From UHGV virus genome UHGV-1354558: 39,910 nucleotides of DNA. One strand, written 5' to 3'. The position numbers and the translations under genes are program-made. This stretch comes from a virus. Under the pieces are notes generated by a model, which worked only from the letters and a program-made list of their open reading frames with translations, searched no databases and had not been told where the DNA came from. Shown here in pieces: positions 24,443 through 29,767 of this stretch. Position 1 is the stretch's first letter. Every line of letters begins with the position of its first letter.

Positions 24443-24622
24443 TTAGCTTTTTTCGTTGCCTTCGCTTTCTTTATTAATTTTAACAAACTCGTTTTTACCA
24501 CGCTCTCCAAATGCGTCTTTAGAGTCGTTGTATCCGCAATCGCAGCACACATAATCTCCAGACCATCCACGCATTGTTTTTTCTTTTGCAATATTTCCAG
24601 AACCGCATTTTGGACAAGACAT
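24443..24622 (-). CDS. small zinc-ribbon protein
   Basis: MSCPKCGSGN...YVCCDCGYN gives two CxxC pairs. Strong GGAGG 7 nt upstream of the internal ATG; AT-rich 3' half. Confidence 0.5.
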   Translation of the reverse strand: MSCPKCGSGNIAKEKTMRGWSGDYVCCDCGYNDSKDAFGERGKNEFVKINKESEGNEKS

Positions 24623-24718
24623 ATCACTACCTCCAAAGCATGAGTGAGATGACAACGTAACATTGATTGGAGATTAACAATAGATTGCTGATGTAAAAGA
24701 TATGTATAAGCTTCGCTT

Positions 24719-25618: not shown

Positions 25619-26115
25619 TGGTTACCTCCTTTGCGAATCTGGGAGGCGAACAAACGTACACCAGACGCTTCACTGCGTAGAAACTTAACGGCATCATCAA
25701 AACCACCTCGTTCTGCGTCGTCTGCTCCGTTGTCGAGGTTATCTGCGTACATCTCTACCCCCTGCGCCCGTACTTCAGCCAGGAAAGCATCGGTGGCTGG
25801 GGTTTCCGTGAAGTTGTCCTCCCAACCGTAGTACTCCTGACGACAGAAGTTATTAAATTCCTTCTCAGATTGCTTAAGCGAGGTATTTTCAGCAGCCATC
25901 TTCGCGCATTTAGCCTCAAGGTTATCAATCGTGATTCCAGCAGAACGACACTCACGCAACGCCGTTTCTAGTTTTGATTCAAGTTCACCGAACTTACGCA
26001 CCAGATATTCAGCGTTTGTTTCGTTAACCTTTAAATCACTTGGGATGCATTTACCTTTCAGAAATCCATCCATCTCAATTAGTGACATTTGTTTCATTTC
26101 TTCCCACTCCGCCAC
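25615..26115 (-). CDS. hypothetical protein
   Basis: 166-aa acidic ORF, translationally coupled to the downstream gene. Confidence 0.5.
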
Positions 26116-26274
26116 ATCGCATTCAGATATTTGTTTTGATTCACTGATGGAAAAGAATTTCTCTTAAGCAATTCCTCTCTCGATGGCATTGGCTTTACGC
26201 GTTGGCGAATAATCATTTCTGCCGGAAGAATGCCGGGATTGTATGCAAGCCCTCTCATGGTAAATTCCTCTTTG

Positions 26275-26589
26275 TTAATTTATTTGTATGCCTGCTCTTT
26301 CTTCATCGAGTTTTTTTAGCTTGTATCGCATAGCTCTTACTGAATAAATTGAGCGGCAGGTTGCAATTGCTATTTCTTCTGCGGAGAACTTACCGAAAAG
26401 TGATACTTCGGCTCTTGTCCAGCGTCTTCCACGAAGTCGGCTAACAATGTCAGCGCCAATCCTTGTTGCTTTCGCCATAACTGCTTTTTCAGTCCTTTCC
26501 AGTTTTTCAGCGATAACTTCAACTGGCATTGTCGCCGCCACTTCGCGCAAGAAATCGACTTCCCATTTCTCCCATGGAGTCTTTTTCAT
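26275..26589 (-). CDS. hypothetical protein
   Basis: 104-aa ORF with internal sequence duplication (two similar about 40-aa halves). Confidence 0.45.
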
Positions 26590-26600
26590 AGTCGATACCG

Positions 26601-27089
26601 TTATTTGATAAGAAGTGAAGGTTTCCCAACCTTGAGTTGAGCGCCTGGGATATTTATTCCTGCTTTTAGTTGGTGCTTGATTGCCAACTTGTCGGCTTTA
26701 ATTGTCGTTTCAAACTCAACGTATTCAGGAGGAAGGGCGCTTGAGTCGATGATTTCTACAGTTTCTGACGGTTTGCGGATTGTTACCTGGTGAATACCTG
26801 CTCGAATCTTTTTCTTGCCAACCATTTCAAGCGATGACGCTATATATGATTTGATGCTGTCAATCTTATTTTGAATTACTGCGGCTCGCTCATTCAGCGA
26901 CTTTGCCTCTTCCTTGAGGCGTTCAGCATAACCAGATTCATTTTTAATGACGGAAAGAAGTTGCTCTATTTTATCGGTAAATTCTCCTTCCATGCCTTCT
27001 ATTGTGTCAGCAATCATCTCTGGTTCTAAATCTGAATCCATCAATTTTGCGTATTCATTGGCAATTTCATACAGTTTGCTCACTGGCAA
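26601..27089 (-). CDS. hypothetical protein next to RecT (possible Gam-like or RecT partner)
   Basis: 162-aa coiled-coil-rich ORF immediately downstream of recT. Function assignment is positional and weak. Confidence 0.4.
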   Translation of the reverse strand: MPVSKLYEIANEYAKLMDSDLEPEMIADTIEGMEGEFTDKIEQLLSVIKNESGYAERLKEEAKSLNERAAVIQNKIDSIKSYIASSLEMVGKKKIRAGIHQVTIRKPSETVEIIDSSALPPEYVEFETTIKADKLAIKHQLKAGINIPGAQLKVGKPSLLIK

Positions 27090-27978
27090 CCTCCAGTTTC
27101 GCTTTGCATTCTGCGTAAATGGCTTGTACGTTCTGCTGCAATTTCATTCCAGATGTCAGGCGATATGCTTCTGCAAAATATCGCTTCAAATCATCCATGT
27201 TTTCTGCCTGAGCCATTTCATCACAAAGAAGTTGTGCTTTATCCGTTATTTCCTGCTGGCGTTTCCGTTCATCTTCGCGGATATCTTCCTCTGATTTGTG
27301 CGGCATAACTGGTTCAGTCCACACACCTTCTTCTTCGTTTAGTACGTGAATAGCACTATCAAGACGTGATGCCTTAGGCCAATACTTGCTTGCACGCTTT
27401 ACGACCGTCTTTCGCGCCATCTCATTCCAGTGATTTACCCATGGTCCTTTATCGCTGAAGGCCGCCTTGCTTGTTTTCCTTACAGCCTCAATTTCAGCCA
27501 GACTCATCTCTTCCGTTAGATAATCACCTGCTGACGTCTTAACTGTGCAGTAAACGCCAACGATATCACCACGATCACCGAAGGCGTTGTATTTATGGGT
27601 TGGTGCTTTATCAAGCCCGTTTGACTCATAGGTATCGTTAGCATGAACAAGTTTTGCCTGACCCCATGAGATAACACCAGACTCCATTGCAATATGGAGC
27701 AATCCCATATAACTGATATCAAGGCACACCATGCCGTCGCGCGGAACCAGATAAGCCAGTTTGCTGGCCGGGTTTAAGGTGATGCCGATCGCCGCAACAT
27801 TGATGATGGCGTTCTGTGCGCTGGTTGGATTTGCCAGTGCCGTTTTAGCCAGGCAATCATTTTTCTGGAAATACTGAATTGCAAACTGGCTTTCCTTAGC
27901 CCATGTCACCGTCTGTTCAGTCAATGCCCCGCAGAATAACTGCTCCTGCTGTTTAACGAATTCAACGATATTGCTCAT
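27067..27978 (-). CDS. recT: RecT-family single-strand annealing protein
   Basis: 303 aa with a conserved RecT block (GPWVNHWNEMARKTVVKRASKYWP). Confidence 0.8.
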   Translation of the reverse strand: MSNIVEFVKQQEQLFCGALTEQTVTWAKESQFAIQYFQKNDCLAKTALANPTSAQNAIINVAAIGITLNPASKLAYLVPRDGMVCLDISYMGLLHIAMESGVISWGQAKLVHANDTYESNGLDKAPTHKYNAFGDRGDIVGVYCTVKTSAGDYLTEEMSLAEIEAVRKTSKAAFSDKGPWVNHWNEMARKTVVKRASKYWPKASRLDSAIHVLNEEEGVWTEPVMPHKSEEDIREDERKRQQEITDKAQLLCDEMAQAENMDDLKRYFAEAYRLTSGMKLQQNVQAIYAECKAKLEVASEQTV

Positions 27979-28286
27979 GCTGCTTCTCCATAAATGTGTC
28001 TGCGTTTGAATATTGCGAAGGCATATTCAGCCTTAACTCTTTCGGTTATTGCATCCCAGAACCATTCAGCGGCTTTTTCCTGATAGTTACAGTCATCATC
28101 TTCCAGCCAGTCGATAGCGTCCTTAGTGTGTTCATCTGGTTTATATGAGCGAAGCATTTCGCTTATTGGGTCGCAACGTTTGCAGAGACGATCAACTTCA
28201 CTGTTGATTCGTTCGTAATCATCATCGGTAAAACTTGCGATGATTTGCGATATTTCACGCTTATCATTCAGAGTCAGAACCATCAT
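27975..28286 (-). CDS. hypothetical acidic protein between cIII and recT
   Basis: 103-aa acidic ORF; by position could be a Kil or anti-RecBCD type function (speculative). Confidence 0.45.
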   Translation of the reverse strand: MMVLTLNDKREISQIIASFTDDDYERINSEVDRLCKRCDPISEMLRSYKPDEHTKDAIDWLEDDDCNYQEKAAEWFWDAITERVKAEYAFAIFKRRHIYGEAA

Positions 28287-28367
28287 CTTTCTCCTGTTCT
28301 TTGTGCTGATTGAGCATTTTGTTCATCTGACGAATGAATTCTTCGTCTGACCAGTTATCTGTAAAAC

Positions 28368-28538
28368 TCATGGACGGCCTTGTTGTTTCAAAATATCCCA
28401 AAGCTTTTCGAGCAAACTTTTCATTCTTGGTTGTTTAAAGTCTGCTCCGGTTAAAATATTTTTTCGTGAATGCTGTACCGATAAAATCGGGTTGAAAGGG
28501 CGAACCGATGCCGCCCCTGCAATAGCGAACTGTTGCAT
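28368..28538 (-). CDS. cIII: CIII-like FtsH inhibitor
   Basis: 56 aa (MQQFAIAGAASVRPF...SLLEKLWDILKQQGRP) resembles lambda CIII (MQYAIAG...LLERI...LIDILNQPG). AAGGAG 6 nt upstream. The longer 28368..28643 ORF is rejected. Confidence 0.7.
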   Translation of the reverse strand: MQQFAIAGAASVRPFNPILSVQHSRKNILTGADFKQPRMKSLLEKLWDILKQQGRP

Positions 28539-28602
28539 AGGATGCTCCTTCTGTTTGATTGCATAACGAAAACGCCTCGAGTGAAGCGTTATTGGTATGC
28601 AT

Positions 28603-28628
28603 ATAAAAAAGCCCTCACACTGGAGGGC
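28603..28628 (-). terminator. intrinsic terminator upstream of cIII (tL1-like)
   Basis: Minus strand reads GCCCTC-cagtgt-GAGGGC followed by TTTTTTAT. Confidence 0.55.
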
Positions 28629-28764
28629 AAAGAAGATTTCCAATAATCAGAACAAGTCGGCTCCTGTTTAGTTACGAGCGACATTGCTCCGTGTATTCAC
28701 TCGTTGGAATGAATACACAGTGCAGTGTTTATCCTGTTGTTTATGCCAAAAATAAAGGCCACCA

Positions 28765-29016
28765 TCAGGCAGCCTTGTTGTAAATGTTGCAGGTATCAAG
28801 TAAGTAATTAGATGGAGCGCCATAAATTATGAATTCATCGTTTGTCGGGTCCATCTCCATCTCTTGGCCTATTGCCATTCTTGCGTCAGTGTCATCAGCG
28901 GCGAAGCATAAAACAGCCCACGCACCCATTGTTTTAAAAAGAACTGCAATTGGCTGTGGTTTTACTGAATTTGCGTTAGCGCGAAAATCATAAATCGCAC
29001 TTTCATGAAATTCCAT
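28765..29016 (-). CDS. hypothetical protein immediately downstream of N
   Basis: 83-aa acidic ORF, 9 nt downstream of N. Confidence 0.5.
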   Translation of the reverse strand: MEFHESAIYDFRANANSVKPQPIAVLFKTMGAWAVLCFAADDTDARMAIGQEMEMDPTNDEFIIYGAPSNYLLDTCNIYNKAA

Positions 29017-29024
29017 ATCTCACC

Positions 29025-29324
29025 TCAAATAAGTGGTTTGCTGCCTAATTTCATTTTCTGGCGACCAACACAAGTCACACCCATTTCACTGCGTGGCTTG
29101 CGGTAGTAAATACGGTTCTGTTTACGCTCGACTTCTTCTGCCTTCTTGCAGCGAAGGCTTCCGAGTGATGCTGCTTTGTCTGCTCTGACGCAACCAGAGA
29201 GCTTTAGCGCAATTTTTTGTGCCAGTCGCTGCTCTTGCATTGCCTGTTCACGTTGAGCCTGTCTGCGTGCTCTGCGGCGATTTCTGGCGTTATCGTCAGC
29301 CAGATATGTAATGACTACTGTCAT
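29025..29324 (-). CDS. N: N-type antitermination protein
   Basis: N-terminal arginine-rich motif (DNARNRRRARRQAQ) and a C-terminus (YYRKPRSEMGVTCVGRQKMKLGSKPLI) resembling lambda N (WYSKPGERGITCSGRQKIKGKSIPLI). GGAGG upstream. Confidence 0.75.
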   Translation of the reverse strand: MTVVITYLADDNARNRRRARRQAQREQAMQEQRLAQKIALKLSGCVRADKAASLGSLRCKKAEEVERKQNRIYYRKPRSEMGVTCVGRQKMKLGSKPLI

Positions 29325-29767
29325 GTTGACCTCCGATGATTGACTTTGGTGATTGGATGGCCGGTGCTGAATTCCGGCTTACTGGTTAGAGCGCCCGCAC
29401 TACCAGTGACGCTGTCTTGAGGCGCAGATTGGTTACTGCTTGCCATGAGCGCTGTTTATACATTGGTCGAGCATCAGCCTGCTCATTCATCCAATCCCAA
29501 AGCCAACTACTCTTTGACTCACACTCTCGCAGTGAGCGCGCTCATGCCCTTGAGTCTCTGCCGCTTCATCGCCGCTGATAACCGGTGCGCGTCTGGCATT
29601 CGCGCTGCTTTACCGGAGCTACTTTTAATATATTGACCCTAACCCGATGCTAAGCAGGCTCGCTCAATGGCGACTCAGGGCAGCATCATTACTGCTGCAT
29701 TGCCTTTCGGCTGCGGTCTAACCGCGTTAGTGCACCATTACGGCACCTCCTGTTTGGTTAAACTCAG

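Follow-up and report, generated by a model that had tools for sequence, protein, structure and literature searches.

The window analysed here, a 39,910-nt stretch comprising the virus genome UHGV-1354558, derives from a P22-like phage, and its recombination region is 98% identical to that of phage Gally and about 97.5% identical to those of HK140, mEpX1 and Kapi1. A preliminary description of this DNA had proposed a RecT recombination module made up of an acidic 103-aa protein, RecT and a 162-aa coiled-coil protein; these three ORFs were confirmed on the minus strand at positions 26601–28286. They are part of a larger cassette consisting of a small arf-like ORF, orf102, recT, gp157, orf104 and a DUF2737 gene (Table 1), which was found intact in 75–79 of 80 IMG/VR relatives with variable flanks; the arf-like ORF was kept in 75, orf104 in 78 and the DUF2737 gene in 76 of these close cassettes. 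A scan of 5426 complete E. coli genomes recovered the region at ≥80% coverage in 170, and the cassette occurs in the plaque-forming isolates HK140, mEpX1, Kapi1 and Gally as well as in hundreds of prophages.

Table 1. Recombination-related genes of the window and their family assignments.
Feature	Position	Strand	Family match or context
Small arf-like ORF, 35 aa	28264..28371	-	phrog_17766, phrog_2123, N-terminal part only
orf102 (103-aa ORF), acidic, all-helical; ‘Gam slot’, first recombination gene of the cassette	27975..28286	-	phrog_3486
RecT, predicted annealase, 303 aa; core 1–215, Gp157-linked C-terminal domain 216–303	27067..27978	-	Pfam RecT, phrog_148
Sipho_Gp157, 160 aa (162-aa ORF 26601–27089); exonuclease position	26601..27083	-	PF05565, phrog_253
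orf104, relative of P22 Abc1 and Mu gp9	26275..26589	-	phrog_323
DUF2737-type small protein, cassette companion	26094..26258	-	phrog_1117 (E = 4.1e-38)
83-aa ORF, pI 4.24	28765–29016		next to N in other phages
nin-region recombination genes	35411..37078	+	Pfam
NinB/Orf mediator	35411–35821	+	Pfam NinB (E = 1.1e-55)
YbcO putative nuclease	36429–36719	+	Pfam YbcO (E = 1.8e-44)
RusA junction resolvase	36716–37078	+	Pfam RusA (E = 2.4e-16)

The genes of the cassette are tightly packed. The ATG of the arf-like ORF overlaps the stop codon of cIII, and its own stop codon lies within the start of orf102. As the homologues of the orf102 product are 102 aa long, translation of orf102 probably starts at the second ATG (28283); its stop codon overlaps the start of recT (ATGA). 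Homologues of Gp157 are 160 aa long, and because a GGAGG Shine-Dalgarno sequence is located 6 nt ahead of a GTG at 27083 within the 162-aa ORF, this GTG is probably the true start of gp157, which would then overlap the last 17 nt of recT. The gene orf104 follows 11 nt downstream of gp157. No Chi site was found in the window, a count which is uninformative because just 1.1 sites are expected by chance.

The product of recT matched the Pfam family PF03837 over residues 31–217 (E = 7.6e-32, 110.9 bits versus a cutoff of 24) and phrog_148 (E = 6.9e-93), and the earlier assignment as a clear RecT-family annealase is upheld by these strong matches; among PDB sequences, no significant match was obtained. 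Residues 4–219 are 59% identical to phi80 Rec, whereas the C-termini of both proteins are unrelated. One C-terminal domain was common to 13 RecT proteins encoded next to Gp157 (49–80% identity), and the RecT proteins linked to Exo, which share 49–60% identity in the core, carry an unrelated one. The RecT of locus L117, with 68% core identity, likewise has an unrelated C-terminal domain, and its 1.3-kb contig ends before the downstream gene. The C-terminal 88 residues of RecT change type with the downstream partner, Gp157 or exonuclease, but phylogeny confounds this association, since the RecT proteins linked to Gp157 constitute one clade. This clade extends over at least 12 enterobacterial genera with 75–97% core identity. 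In phage lambda, the C-terminal domain of Beta is the Exo-binding domain; structures are cited in PMC12315714. The exchange of the RecT C-terminal domain together with its partner points to a contact between RecT and Gp157 that can be tested and could explain how the annealase functions without a dedicated exonuclease.

Scans with Pfam or PHROGs revealed no RecE/DUF3799, YqaJ/lambda Exo or other 5′–3′ exonuclease in the nin region or among the listed ORFs from int to N, those of the 28264–28643 interval included. A canonical exonuclease domain was specifically looked for in the flanking ORFs by Pfam and PHROG matching and was not found, and none of the nin-region proteins NinB, YbcO and RusA is a 5′–3′ resection exonuclease. 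The YqaJ and DUF3799 nucleases of related modules gave no tblastn match at a distance of up to 5 kb from the cassette in any of the 80 close relatives. For 17 more diverged RecT–Gp157 loci, 119 unassigned neighbour ORFs were compared with Pfam, and no exonuclease was present among 25 listed of the 32 matched families. The cassette is thus without the adjacent 5′–3′ exonuclease gene by which the ‘SynExo’ systems lambda Red and RecET are recognised, and the preliminary statement that neither a RecE nor a lambda Exo nuclease is recognisable holds in the Pfam, PHROG and tblastn scans. The accompanying suggestion that the module may rely on host nucleases agrees with how modules of the P22 functional type are generally understood (PMC12315714).

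The 103-aa ORF upstream of recT encodes an acidic protein (pI 4.64, net charge −9) belonging to the function-unknown family phrog_3486 (E = 5.6e-59), and its AlphaFold2 model (pLDDT 81) comprises five helices. No match was found in Pfam, among PDB sequences or with Foldseek against the PDB at E < 0.5, where the top hits, T4 UvsY at E = 4.2, were discarded as noise. Homologues of the orf102 product were always encoded directly upstream of a recombinase or nuclease gene, a position retained in 10 diverse contexts, and distant homologues precede RecT+YqaJ, Erf+YqaJ or RecE-like genes. The orf102 product itself was ruled out as the missing nuclease because its homologues sit ahead of modules that already possess a YqaJ or DUF3799 nuclease.

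Lambda Gam and phi80 GamL are known inhibitors of RecBCD. In 95 loci with RecT and Gp157, the first slot was occupied by orf102 in 81 cases, by lambda Gam in six (Pfam E = 2.8e-51) and by phi80 GamL in five (78% identical), and never by two of them together. At the sequence level, none of 39 members of the orf102 family matched Pfam Gam (PF06064) at E values up to 1, and Foldseek of the model against the PDB did not return the lambda Gam structures 2UUZ and 5MBV. Comparison by hhalign gave a weak local similarity to lambda Gam (probability 45%, E = 2.2e-4, 27 colinear columns around DDDxx[YF]QE) and a probability of 3.5% for phi80 GamL. The preliminary proposal of the 103-aa protein as an anti-RecBCD candidate is therefore reasonable with respect to the slot, which alternates exclusively with lambda Gam and GamL, and finds no counterpart in homology; the argument for this role is slot replacement. 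The orf102 product would most likely be a third kind of ‘Gam slot’ protein, acting as a RecBCD antagonist.

Alternatively, the protein could act as an Arf-like or mediator-type accessory factor of recombination, which aids whichever recombinase follows and does not inhibit RecBCD. Translational coupling of orf102 to the next gene regardless of its family (RecT, Erf or DUF3799 nuclease), the presence of arf at the equivalent place in P22, the insignificant resemblance to the UvsY mediator and the presumed anti-RecBCD function of Gp157 in the same cassette are all in line with such a role. However, a separate arf-like ORF is already located upstream, BLASTP of the orf102 product against P22 Arf gave no match, and lambda Gam or GamL replace orf102 one-for-one in near-identical RecT–Gp157 cassettes. 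Furthermore, size, acidity and helical content of the protein resemble those of GamS (98 aa) and GamL (93 aa), and we consider an accessory function rather unlikely compared with RecBCD antagonism.

The gene downstream of recT, at the position of the exonuclease, encodes a protein matching Pfam Sipho_Gp157 over the full length of the profile (PF05565, E = 2.5e-38, residues 5–162 versus profile positions 1–162 of 162) and phrog_253 (E = 1.2e-54). The preliminary description had overlooked that its 162-aa coiled-coil protein is Sipho_Gp157, which had earlier been counted as the MuGam-type anti-RecBCD protein of the module. The AlphaFold2 model (pLDDT 81, pTM 0.44) shows a long helix (residues 21–88) followed by a beta-rich C-terminal domain. 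In a broad family alignment, D26, T27, K38, R66, R103, K132 and K136 as well as glycines and prolines were invariant or near-invariant, and conserved acidic residues were lacking from the beta domain across the family; this set of residues is more suggestive of binding than of catalysis. The earlier idea that a flanking ORF encodes a novel nuclease is disfavoured by this lack of conserved acidic residues and, for the 103-aa family, by its co-occurrence with YqaJ or RecE-like nucleases.

No significant match of Gp157 was detected among PDB sequences, and Foldseek of the monomer model (pTM 0.44) against the PDB gave no match at E < 0.5; against BFVD, other Gp157 proteins and weak matches to PD-(D/E)XK or exonuclease proteins (E = 7.5e-3 to 0.9) were found. 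With regard to Mu Gam, PF07352 did not match at E values up to 0.1, and hhalign yielded probabilities of 1.1% with a 26-sequence alignment and 1.3% with 22 diverse Gp157 versus 10 Mu Gam sequences, shallow alignments that make this a weak negative. As the value stayed at about 1% even with both alignments widened and Foldseek against the PDB was empty, homology of Gp157 and Mu Gam is not claimed here. The equivalent protein of HK140 was placed in the MuGam type of anti-RecBCD or end-protection proteins (PMC12315714); our own tests gave no support, so the source of this label is the PHROG annotation together with the fold-based class of that survey. In 11 loci, Gp157 was accompanied by lambda Gam or GamL, which are genuine RecBCD inhibitors, and this would be odd if inhibition of RecBCD were the sole task of Gp157. 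In distant Gp157 loci (≤41% identity), the upstream genes were mostly unannotatable, including those for 513–737-aa proteins without a Pfam match, and one encoded a Rad52-family annealase.

The position of Gp157 exactly in the Exo slot after RecT can also be explained by a true exonuclease substitute, either a nuclease with a new fold or an adaptor which recruits a host nuclease or helicase (e.g. RecJ/RecQ or a remodelled RecBCD) and passes ssDNA to RecT, as opposed to a simple end-capping blocker of RecBCD. The switch of the RecT C-terminal domain between Gp157 and Exo, which parallels the binding of Exo by lambda Beta, would fit this explanation, as would the weak BFVD matches and the co-occurrence with lambda Gam or GamL, which implies that Gp157 does more than duplicate a RecBCD inhibitor. 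A nuclease is, however, disfavoured by the unconserved acidic residues of the beta domain, the binding-like conserved set and the absence of any nuclease family match in Pfam, PHROGs and the PDB, and we regard substitution for the exonuclease as improbable.

The remaining genes of the cassette show relationships to P22. The arf-like ORF begins with MSFTDNWSDEEFI and matched phrog_17766 (E = 2.1e-15) and phrog_2123 (E = 3.8e-10) with its N-terminal 20–30 residues only; the motif SDEEFI is common to it and P22 Arf, and an Arf-like function is conceivable on this basis. The gene orf104 encodes a basic protein (pI 9.9) with two helix-turn-helix-like repeats which, like P22 Abc1 and Mu gp9, matches phrog_323 (E = 2.2e-20, 1.3e-23 and 5.2e-29, respectively). 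In hhalign comparisons, it reached a probability of 80% with Mu gp9 and 41% with P22 Abc1, and a BLASTP comparison of the 104-aa protein with P22 Abc1 and Abc2 was negative, the link to Abc1 being visible at the profile level only. The relationship of this gene after gp157 to Abc1 and Mu gp9 had not been noticed in the preliminary description. Homologues of Abc2 were absent from the window and its relatives by BLASTP and tblastn. The 83-aa protein, previously put forward by position as an anti-RecBCD or anti-restriction candidate, does not belong to the system: its gene accompanied only seven of 80 near-identical cassettes and adjoins N in phages such as HK633, mEp234 and VT2-Sakai, whose Rec modules are quite different, and on this distribution it was rejected as a module member.

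The cassette is a standard, previously catalogued nuclease-less Rec module and not a new one. We assign a probability of about 0.7 to the reading that it is this module of a P22-like lambdoid phage and operates by the mechanism described below, in which domain identities, gene order and overlaps, cassette conservation, slot replacement and the co-variation of C-terminal domain and partner were computed here and all biochemical activities of Gp157, orf102 and orf104 are predictions. The packed and partly translationally coupled cassette, running from the arf-like ORF through orf102, recT, gp157 and the Abc1/Mu gp9-like orf104 to the DUF2737 gene, would be carried by an N-antiterminated early-left transcript. 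RecT would be the annealase, and Gp157 would stand in at the position held by lambda Exo/YqaJ or RecE nucleases in sister modules. Most likely, Gp157 would act as a dimeric coiled-coil DNA-end binder shielding linear phage DNA from RecBCD, probably tied to RecT via the partner-specific C-terminal domain of the latter, and the orf102 product would antagonise RecBCD from the ‘Gam slot’. Single-stranded DNA for annealing would be provided by host enzymes or replication, as in P22 with Erf, Abc1 and Abc2.

That the module is instead a decayed remnant, deprived of its exonuclease and inactive in recombination, would account for the missing nuclease and is very improbable, given intact and overlapping ORFs, conservation in plaque-forming phages, hundreds of prophages and the RecT clade of at least 12 genera, and retention of a Rec module by nearly all headful packagers, P22-like phages among them (PMC12315714).

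Beyond the standard module described above, the orf102 family may form a new, sequence-distinct class of RecBCD antagonists interchangeable with Gam and GamL, and Gp157, docked on a dedicated C-terminal domain of RecT, may process ends in place of the exonuclease instead of being a redundant second RecBCD blocker; we put forward this combined proposal tentatively and would sooner doubt than accept it. A family of ~100-aa proteins that always opens Rec modules and swaps with Gam or GamL offers an inexpensive candidate for a new inhibitor of RecBCD, of interest for recombineering tools and for defence systems that sense such inhibition (e.g. retron Ec48, Gabija).

The searched literature contained no experimental work on the RecT–Gp157 cassette. 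In a survey published in 2025 and covering 325 lambdoid phages, HK140 is listed with a “RecT-type annealase + MuGam-type anti-RecBCD, no nuclease”, a nuclease is absent from 84 of 246 enterobacterial Rec modules, and the P22 functional type, consisting of anti-RecBCD and annealase only, comprises 46 phages (PMC12315714). The phrog_3486 family of orf102 lies outside the Rec-module genes counted in that survey. Our finding mainly bears out the mosaicism of lambdoid phages, in which the slots of Rec modules are interchangeable and about one third of the modules are nuclease-free.

Mu Gam is a Ku-like protein that binds DNA ends. Mu Gam (174 aa; PF07352, phrog_491) and Gp157 (160 aa; PF05565, phrog_253) belong to separate families whose profiles show no statistically supported similarity (hhalign probability ~1%), and hhalign aligned their C-terminal halves colinearly (93–153 versus 95–159). 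The Gp157 model combines a long helix with a beta-rich C-terminal half; the only feature of Mu Gam documented in the literature is a leucine zipper. In Mu, gp9 adjoins Gam and belongs to phrog_323 like orf104 of the window. The arf-erf-abc1-abc2 module of P22 is also nuclease-less and depends on modified host RecBCD. P22 and the window have in common an Abc1-like gene, the arf-like N-terminus and a trailing DUF2737 gene, which in P22 is orf56 located after abc2. In contrast, the P22 annealase is Erf instead of RecT, P22 has neither Gp157 nor orf102, and the window has no Abc2.

The modules GamL-Rec-Exo of phi80 and Gam-Bet-Exo (Red) of lambda likewise consist of a small acidic gene, an annealase and a third gene, and in lambda the Rec cassette follows cIII in the early left operon as in the window. 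The order Gam-slot gene, RecT and YqaJ/Exo was found in phi80, ENT47670, Midgardsormr38 and the loci L116, L119 and L121. The third slot of phi80 and lambda is filled by a YqaJ/lambda Exo nuclease and that of the window by Gp157; moreover, the C-terminal domain of phi80 Rec is unrelated to that of the window RecT, and the first-slot protein of the window belongs, judged from its sequence, to neither Gam nor GamL. The closest counterparts are HK140, mEpX1, Gally and Kapi1, which were assigned to SAP type 4 with ‘MuGam’ and no nuclease (PMC12315714). Their flanks differ from those of the window, which contains the 83-aa gene and lacks ral and sieB, and an additional 150-aa gene is present in Gally; the core of orf102, RecT, Gp157 and the 104-aa gene has the same order at 97–98% nucleotide identity and is essentially the same in all of them.

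The window covers an entire lambdoid phage or prophage of the P22-like (Lederbergvirus) type. It has genes for terminase, portal, coat, gtrABC and int/xis, and further a leftward early operon, cI-cro-cII, replication genes resembling O and DnaB, the nin region and lysis genes. Across 26200-29400, identity is 98% to E. coli phage Gally (LF82 prophage) and about 97.5% to HK140, mEpX1 and Kapi1; of 5426 complete E. coli genomes, 170 contain this segment at ≥80% coverage. The early-left genes are located on the minus strand and transcribed from PL in the order from N to the DUF2737 gene, beyond which EaE-like, Ea22/DUF551 and Lar-like genes, a 114-aa ORF, xis and int are found. Of 80 close IMG/VR relatives, 75-79 carry the block arf35-orf102-RecT-Gp157-orf104-DUF2737, with variable flanks. 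The recT start overlaps the orf102 stop (ATGA), and Gp157 starts with a GTG preceded by GGAGG, overlapping the recT end by 17 nt. At its start arf35 overlaps the stop of cIII, and at its end the start of orf102; its first 20-30 residues match arf-type PHROGs, with SDEEFI common to P22 Arf, and the remainder is unrelated, so that by sequence it looks like a mosaic junction within an arf-like gene.

Features of the early-left and nin regions in window coordinates
Feature	Position	Strand	Remarks
N	29025-29324	-	phrog_271
83-aa acidic ORF	28765-29016	-	phrog_2471
cIII-like ORF	28368-28535	-	phrog_550
35-aa arf-like ORF (arf35)	28264-28371	-	PHROG matches in N-terminus only
102/103-aa acidic ORF (orf102)	27975-28286	-	phrog_3486; pI 4.64
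RecT	27067-27978	-	Pfam E 7.6e-32
160-aa protein (Gp157)	26601-27083	-	162-aa reading uses a TTG start two codons earlier
104-aa basic protein (orf104)	26275-26589	-	phrog_323
DUF2737 gene	26094-26258	-	phrog_1117
70-aa zinc-ribbon protein	24443-24655	-	sub-threshold Lar match (Pfam E 1.4e-4, 22.5 bits vs cutoff 28.6)
YbcO and RusA (nin region)	36429-37078	+	

The preliminary description had reported a RecT module without a recognisable exonuclease, which might rely on host nucleases. The ORFs are indeed present as described, and no resection exonuclease, whether of the RecE/DUF3799, the YqaJ/lambda Exo or another type, was detected among the early-left ORFs from int to N or the nin-region ORFs; the nucleases among them are YbcO and the RusA resolvase, adjoining NinB. 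Reliance on host nucleases is the standard reading for such modules, and there is nothing unusual in the arrangement, which has been catalogued before. In a 2025 survey of 325 lambdoid phages (Genome Res 35:1767, PMC12315714), a Rec module is described as some combination of SSB, nuclease, annealase (SAP) and anti-RecBCD genes; a nuclease is missing from 84 of 246 enterobacterial modules, and 46 phages belong to the P22 functional type with only anti-RecBCD and SAP genes. HK140, carrying the same cassette as the window, is listed there with SAP type 4 and a 'MuGam' anti-RecBCD gene, and with neither SSB nor nuclease. The most interesting leftovers are the orf102 family as a candidate RecBCD antagonist in the Gam slot and the co-variation of the RecT C-terminal domain with Gp157.

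The orf102 family comprised 27 clusters in a word-indexed search and 54 representatives at E≤0.001 in an exhaustive search. In every visible context its members are the first gene of the recombination module and abut the next gene. They are followed by RecT and YqaJ in Cronobacter ENT47670, Erwinia Midgardsormr38 and the comparison contigs L116, L119 and L121, by Erf and YqaJ in L120, by a DUF3799 RecE-like nuclease in Salmonella SEN22 and L118, and by RecT in L117, which ends before the next gene. Because orf102 homologues lie in front of YqaJ or DUF3799 nuclease genes within such modules, the possibility that this flanking protein is itself the missing nuclease was rejected. In the phage contig L120 (2206-3180), a gene encoding Gad1 (anti-Gabija) is located just upstream of cIII-orf102-Erf-YqaJ; end-binding or recombination proteins have been proposed to license Gabija (PMC12407980).

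Seventeen more diverged RecT-Gp157 loci were obtained from GTDB genomes (Gp157 identity 55-79%). Upstream of RecT, four of them carry a 98-aa lambda Gam homologue (Pfam Gam, best E 2.8e-51); elsewhere this gene is a homologue of GamL (78% identical to phi80 GamL) or of orf102, and in one case something else. A tblastn census of all fetched loci gave 95 with RecT and Gp157, among which orf102 was present in 81, lambda Gam in 6 and GamL in 5, and none had two of these genes. Both lambda Gam and GamL are known to inhibit RecBCD (PMC12315714, with reference to Wilkinson 2022 and Rotman 2012). That these genes replace one another in the loci and never co-occur there, and that orf102 is like Gam and GamL in size, acidity and helical content, together make the strongest case at hand for orf102 sharing their role, namely RecBCD antagonism. 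The anti-RecBCD role proposed earlier for this protein thus gains comparative support, short of proof. By hhalign, orf102 matched lambda Gam weakly (probability 45%, E 2.2e-4, 27 columns around DDDxx[YF]QE) and GamL with a probability of 3.5%; none of 39 family members had a Pfam Gam match, and Foldseek of the orf102 model returned no match to Gam structures. The survey lists four anti-RecBCD types, with no orf102-type protein among them, and scores SEN22-type modules as devoid of an anti-RecBCD gene (PMC12315714), yet these modules do contain orf102.

In SEN22 (L004:4809-6199), the orf102 homologue (94% identical) and the nuclease gene are followed by a 189-aa protein (phrog_11517) with no Pfam match. 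It was presumably counted as the SSB in the SEN22-type row of the survey, which has SSB and nuclease and no annealase (PMC12315714), and it could be an unrecognised annealase. A C-terminal E-A/V-A is retained even in very diverged orf102 homologues (family alignment A7; window 27975-27990). At the DNA level it corresponds to GGAGAAGCAGCATGA, which contains the Shine-Dalgarno sequence of the recombinase gene that follows along with the ATGA overlap; it is probably conserved because translational coupling constrains it, not as a feature of the protein.

For the 83-aa acidic protein, also put forward as anti-RecBCD, the comparison gave no such support. Its gene occurs in only 7 of the 80 close relatives and adjoins N in HK633, mEp234 and VT2-Sakai, phages with quite different Rec modules, and therefore lies outside the recombination cassette. 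It is a widely shared early gene, independent of Rec module type, and about 99% conserved beside N in many lambdoid phages, Stx-converting ones among them. By position, the Lar-like 70-aa zinc-ribbon protein is a better anti-restriction candidate than either acidic ORF.

Gp157, the coiled-coil protein of the preliminary description, matches Pfam Sipho_Gp157 over its full length (E 2.5e-38) and belongs to phrog_253, labelled 'Mu Gam-like end protection'. We treat the Mu Gam label as an annotation by others, because our Gp157 alignments, compared by hhalign with Mu Gam or an alignment of its family, reached a probability of only about 1%, although each comparison paired one and the same colinear stretch of the C-terminus. 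The AlphaFold2 model (pLDDT 81, pTM 0.44) has a short helix, a long helix (residues 21-88) and a beta-rich C-terminal domain. Foldseek found no match to it in the PDB; in BFVD, it retrieved other Gp157 proteins and weak PD-(D/E)XK/exonuclease matches. The latter (ranks 14, 28, 41, 45 and 48) are larger phage proteins of the PD-(D/E)XK or 'exonuclease' kind, such as a 398-aa protein of Tsukamurella phage TIN4 (E 7.5e-3, TM 0.45), and may represent a Gp157-like domain fused to nucleases or a mere helix and beta-meander resemblance. In a survey of Firmicutes phages, the annealase genes erf and sak4 have Gp157-like (orf157-like) and Mu Gam-like genes as neighbours (PMC8093625); our literature search found no experimental study of Gp157 or the orf102 family.

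In the window, Gp157 fills the slot held by the exonuclease in sister modules. A minority hypothesis is that it functionally replaces the exonuclease, either by acting as a recruiter or by being itself a nuclease of an unconventional kind. This idea stays alive because Gp157 often occurs alongside a true Gam or GamL, which suggests that it does more than block RecBCD; against catalysis, its beta domain has no acidic residue that is kept throughout the wider family. Conserved basic residues are K38, R66, R103, K132 and K136.

In Pseudenterobacter timonensis (L097:3738-4942), an IS element with HTH and rve-type transposase ORFs occupies the recT position directly upstream of Gp157, and this is a disrupted cassette copy. 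RecT-Gp157 cassettes on 2-5 kb GTDB contigs titled Actinomycetes MAG, Micromonospora and Streptomyces (L091, L094, L100) share about 70% identity with those of enterobacteria and are most likely assembly contamination. Dam/N6 methylase and HNH_3/AP2 homing-type endonuclease genes are variably inserted in related loci just downstream of Gp157/orf104 (e.g. L096:5955-6506, L098:1074-1625 and L105:5652-6203; Pfam counts are per family, not per ORF) and are not resection nucleases.

Over its core (residues 1-215), the window's RecT shares 49-60% identity with the exonuclease-linked RecTs of phi80, ENT47670, Midgardsormr38 and L121 and 68% with that of L117, whose tail is of the exonuclease-linked type. 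Its last 88 residues are unrelated to the tails of all these proteins. The same C-terminal domain (49-80% identity, motif ...GMKLQQNVQAIY.ECK) was found in 13 of 13 Gp157-linked RecTs, whereas exonuclease-linked RecTs have a different, common one. The C-terminal domain of lambda Beta is a partner-binding domain. By analogy with Beta, and given this co-variation, we infer that the RecT C-terminal domain contacts Gp157. Structures of lambda Beta are listed in PMC12315714. The co-variation could also be a product of shared ancestry, as Gp157-linked RecTs form one clade.

In the most likely mechanism, early-left transcription would lead to coupled expression of orf102, RecT and Gp157, whose gene overlaps are observed. 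The orf102 protein and/or Gp157 would keep RecBCD off the linear, terminally redundant injected genome and off rolling-circle tails. Gp157, with its predicted long coiled coil, beta domain and conserved basic residues, would bind DNA ends and hold RecT there via the dedicated C-terminal domain of the latter. RecT would then anneal single strands exposed by host nucleases or replication, enabling genome circularisation and recombination-dependent replication, and NinB, YbcO and RusA would act later.

The basic protein orf104 shares its PHROG with P22 Abc1 and Mu gp9, which accounts for its 'Abc1' annotation in Gally despite a negative BLASTP search against P22 Abc1; hhalign gave 80% to Mu gp9 and 41% to Abc1. 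Mu gp9 (L007:5482-5781) is encoded directly upstream of Mu gam, and an Abc1/gp9-like HTH-repeat protein seems to accompany end-protection/anti-RecBCD genes in three otherwise unrelated phage types. In the nin region, the window carries YbcO and RusA alongside NinB, whereas P22 has NinG/Rap instead.
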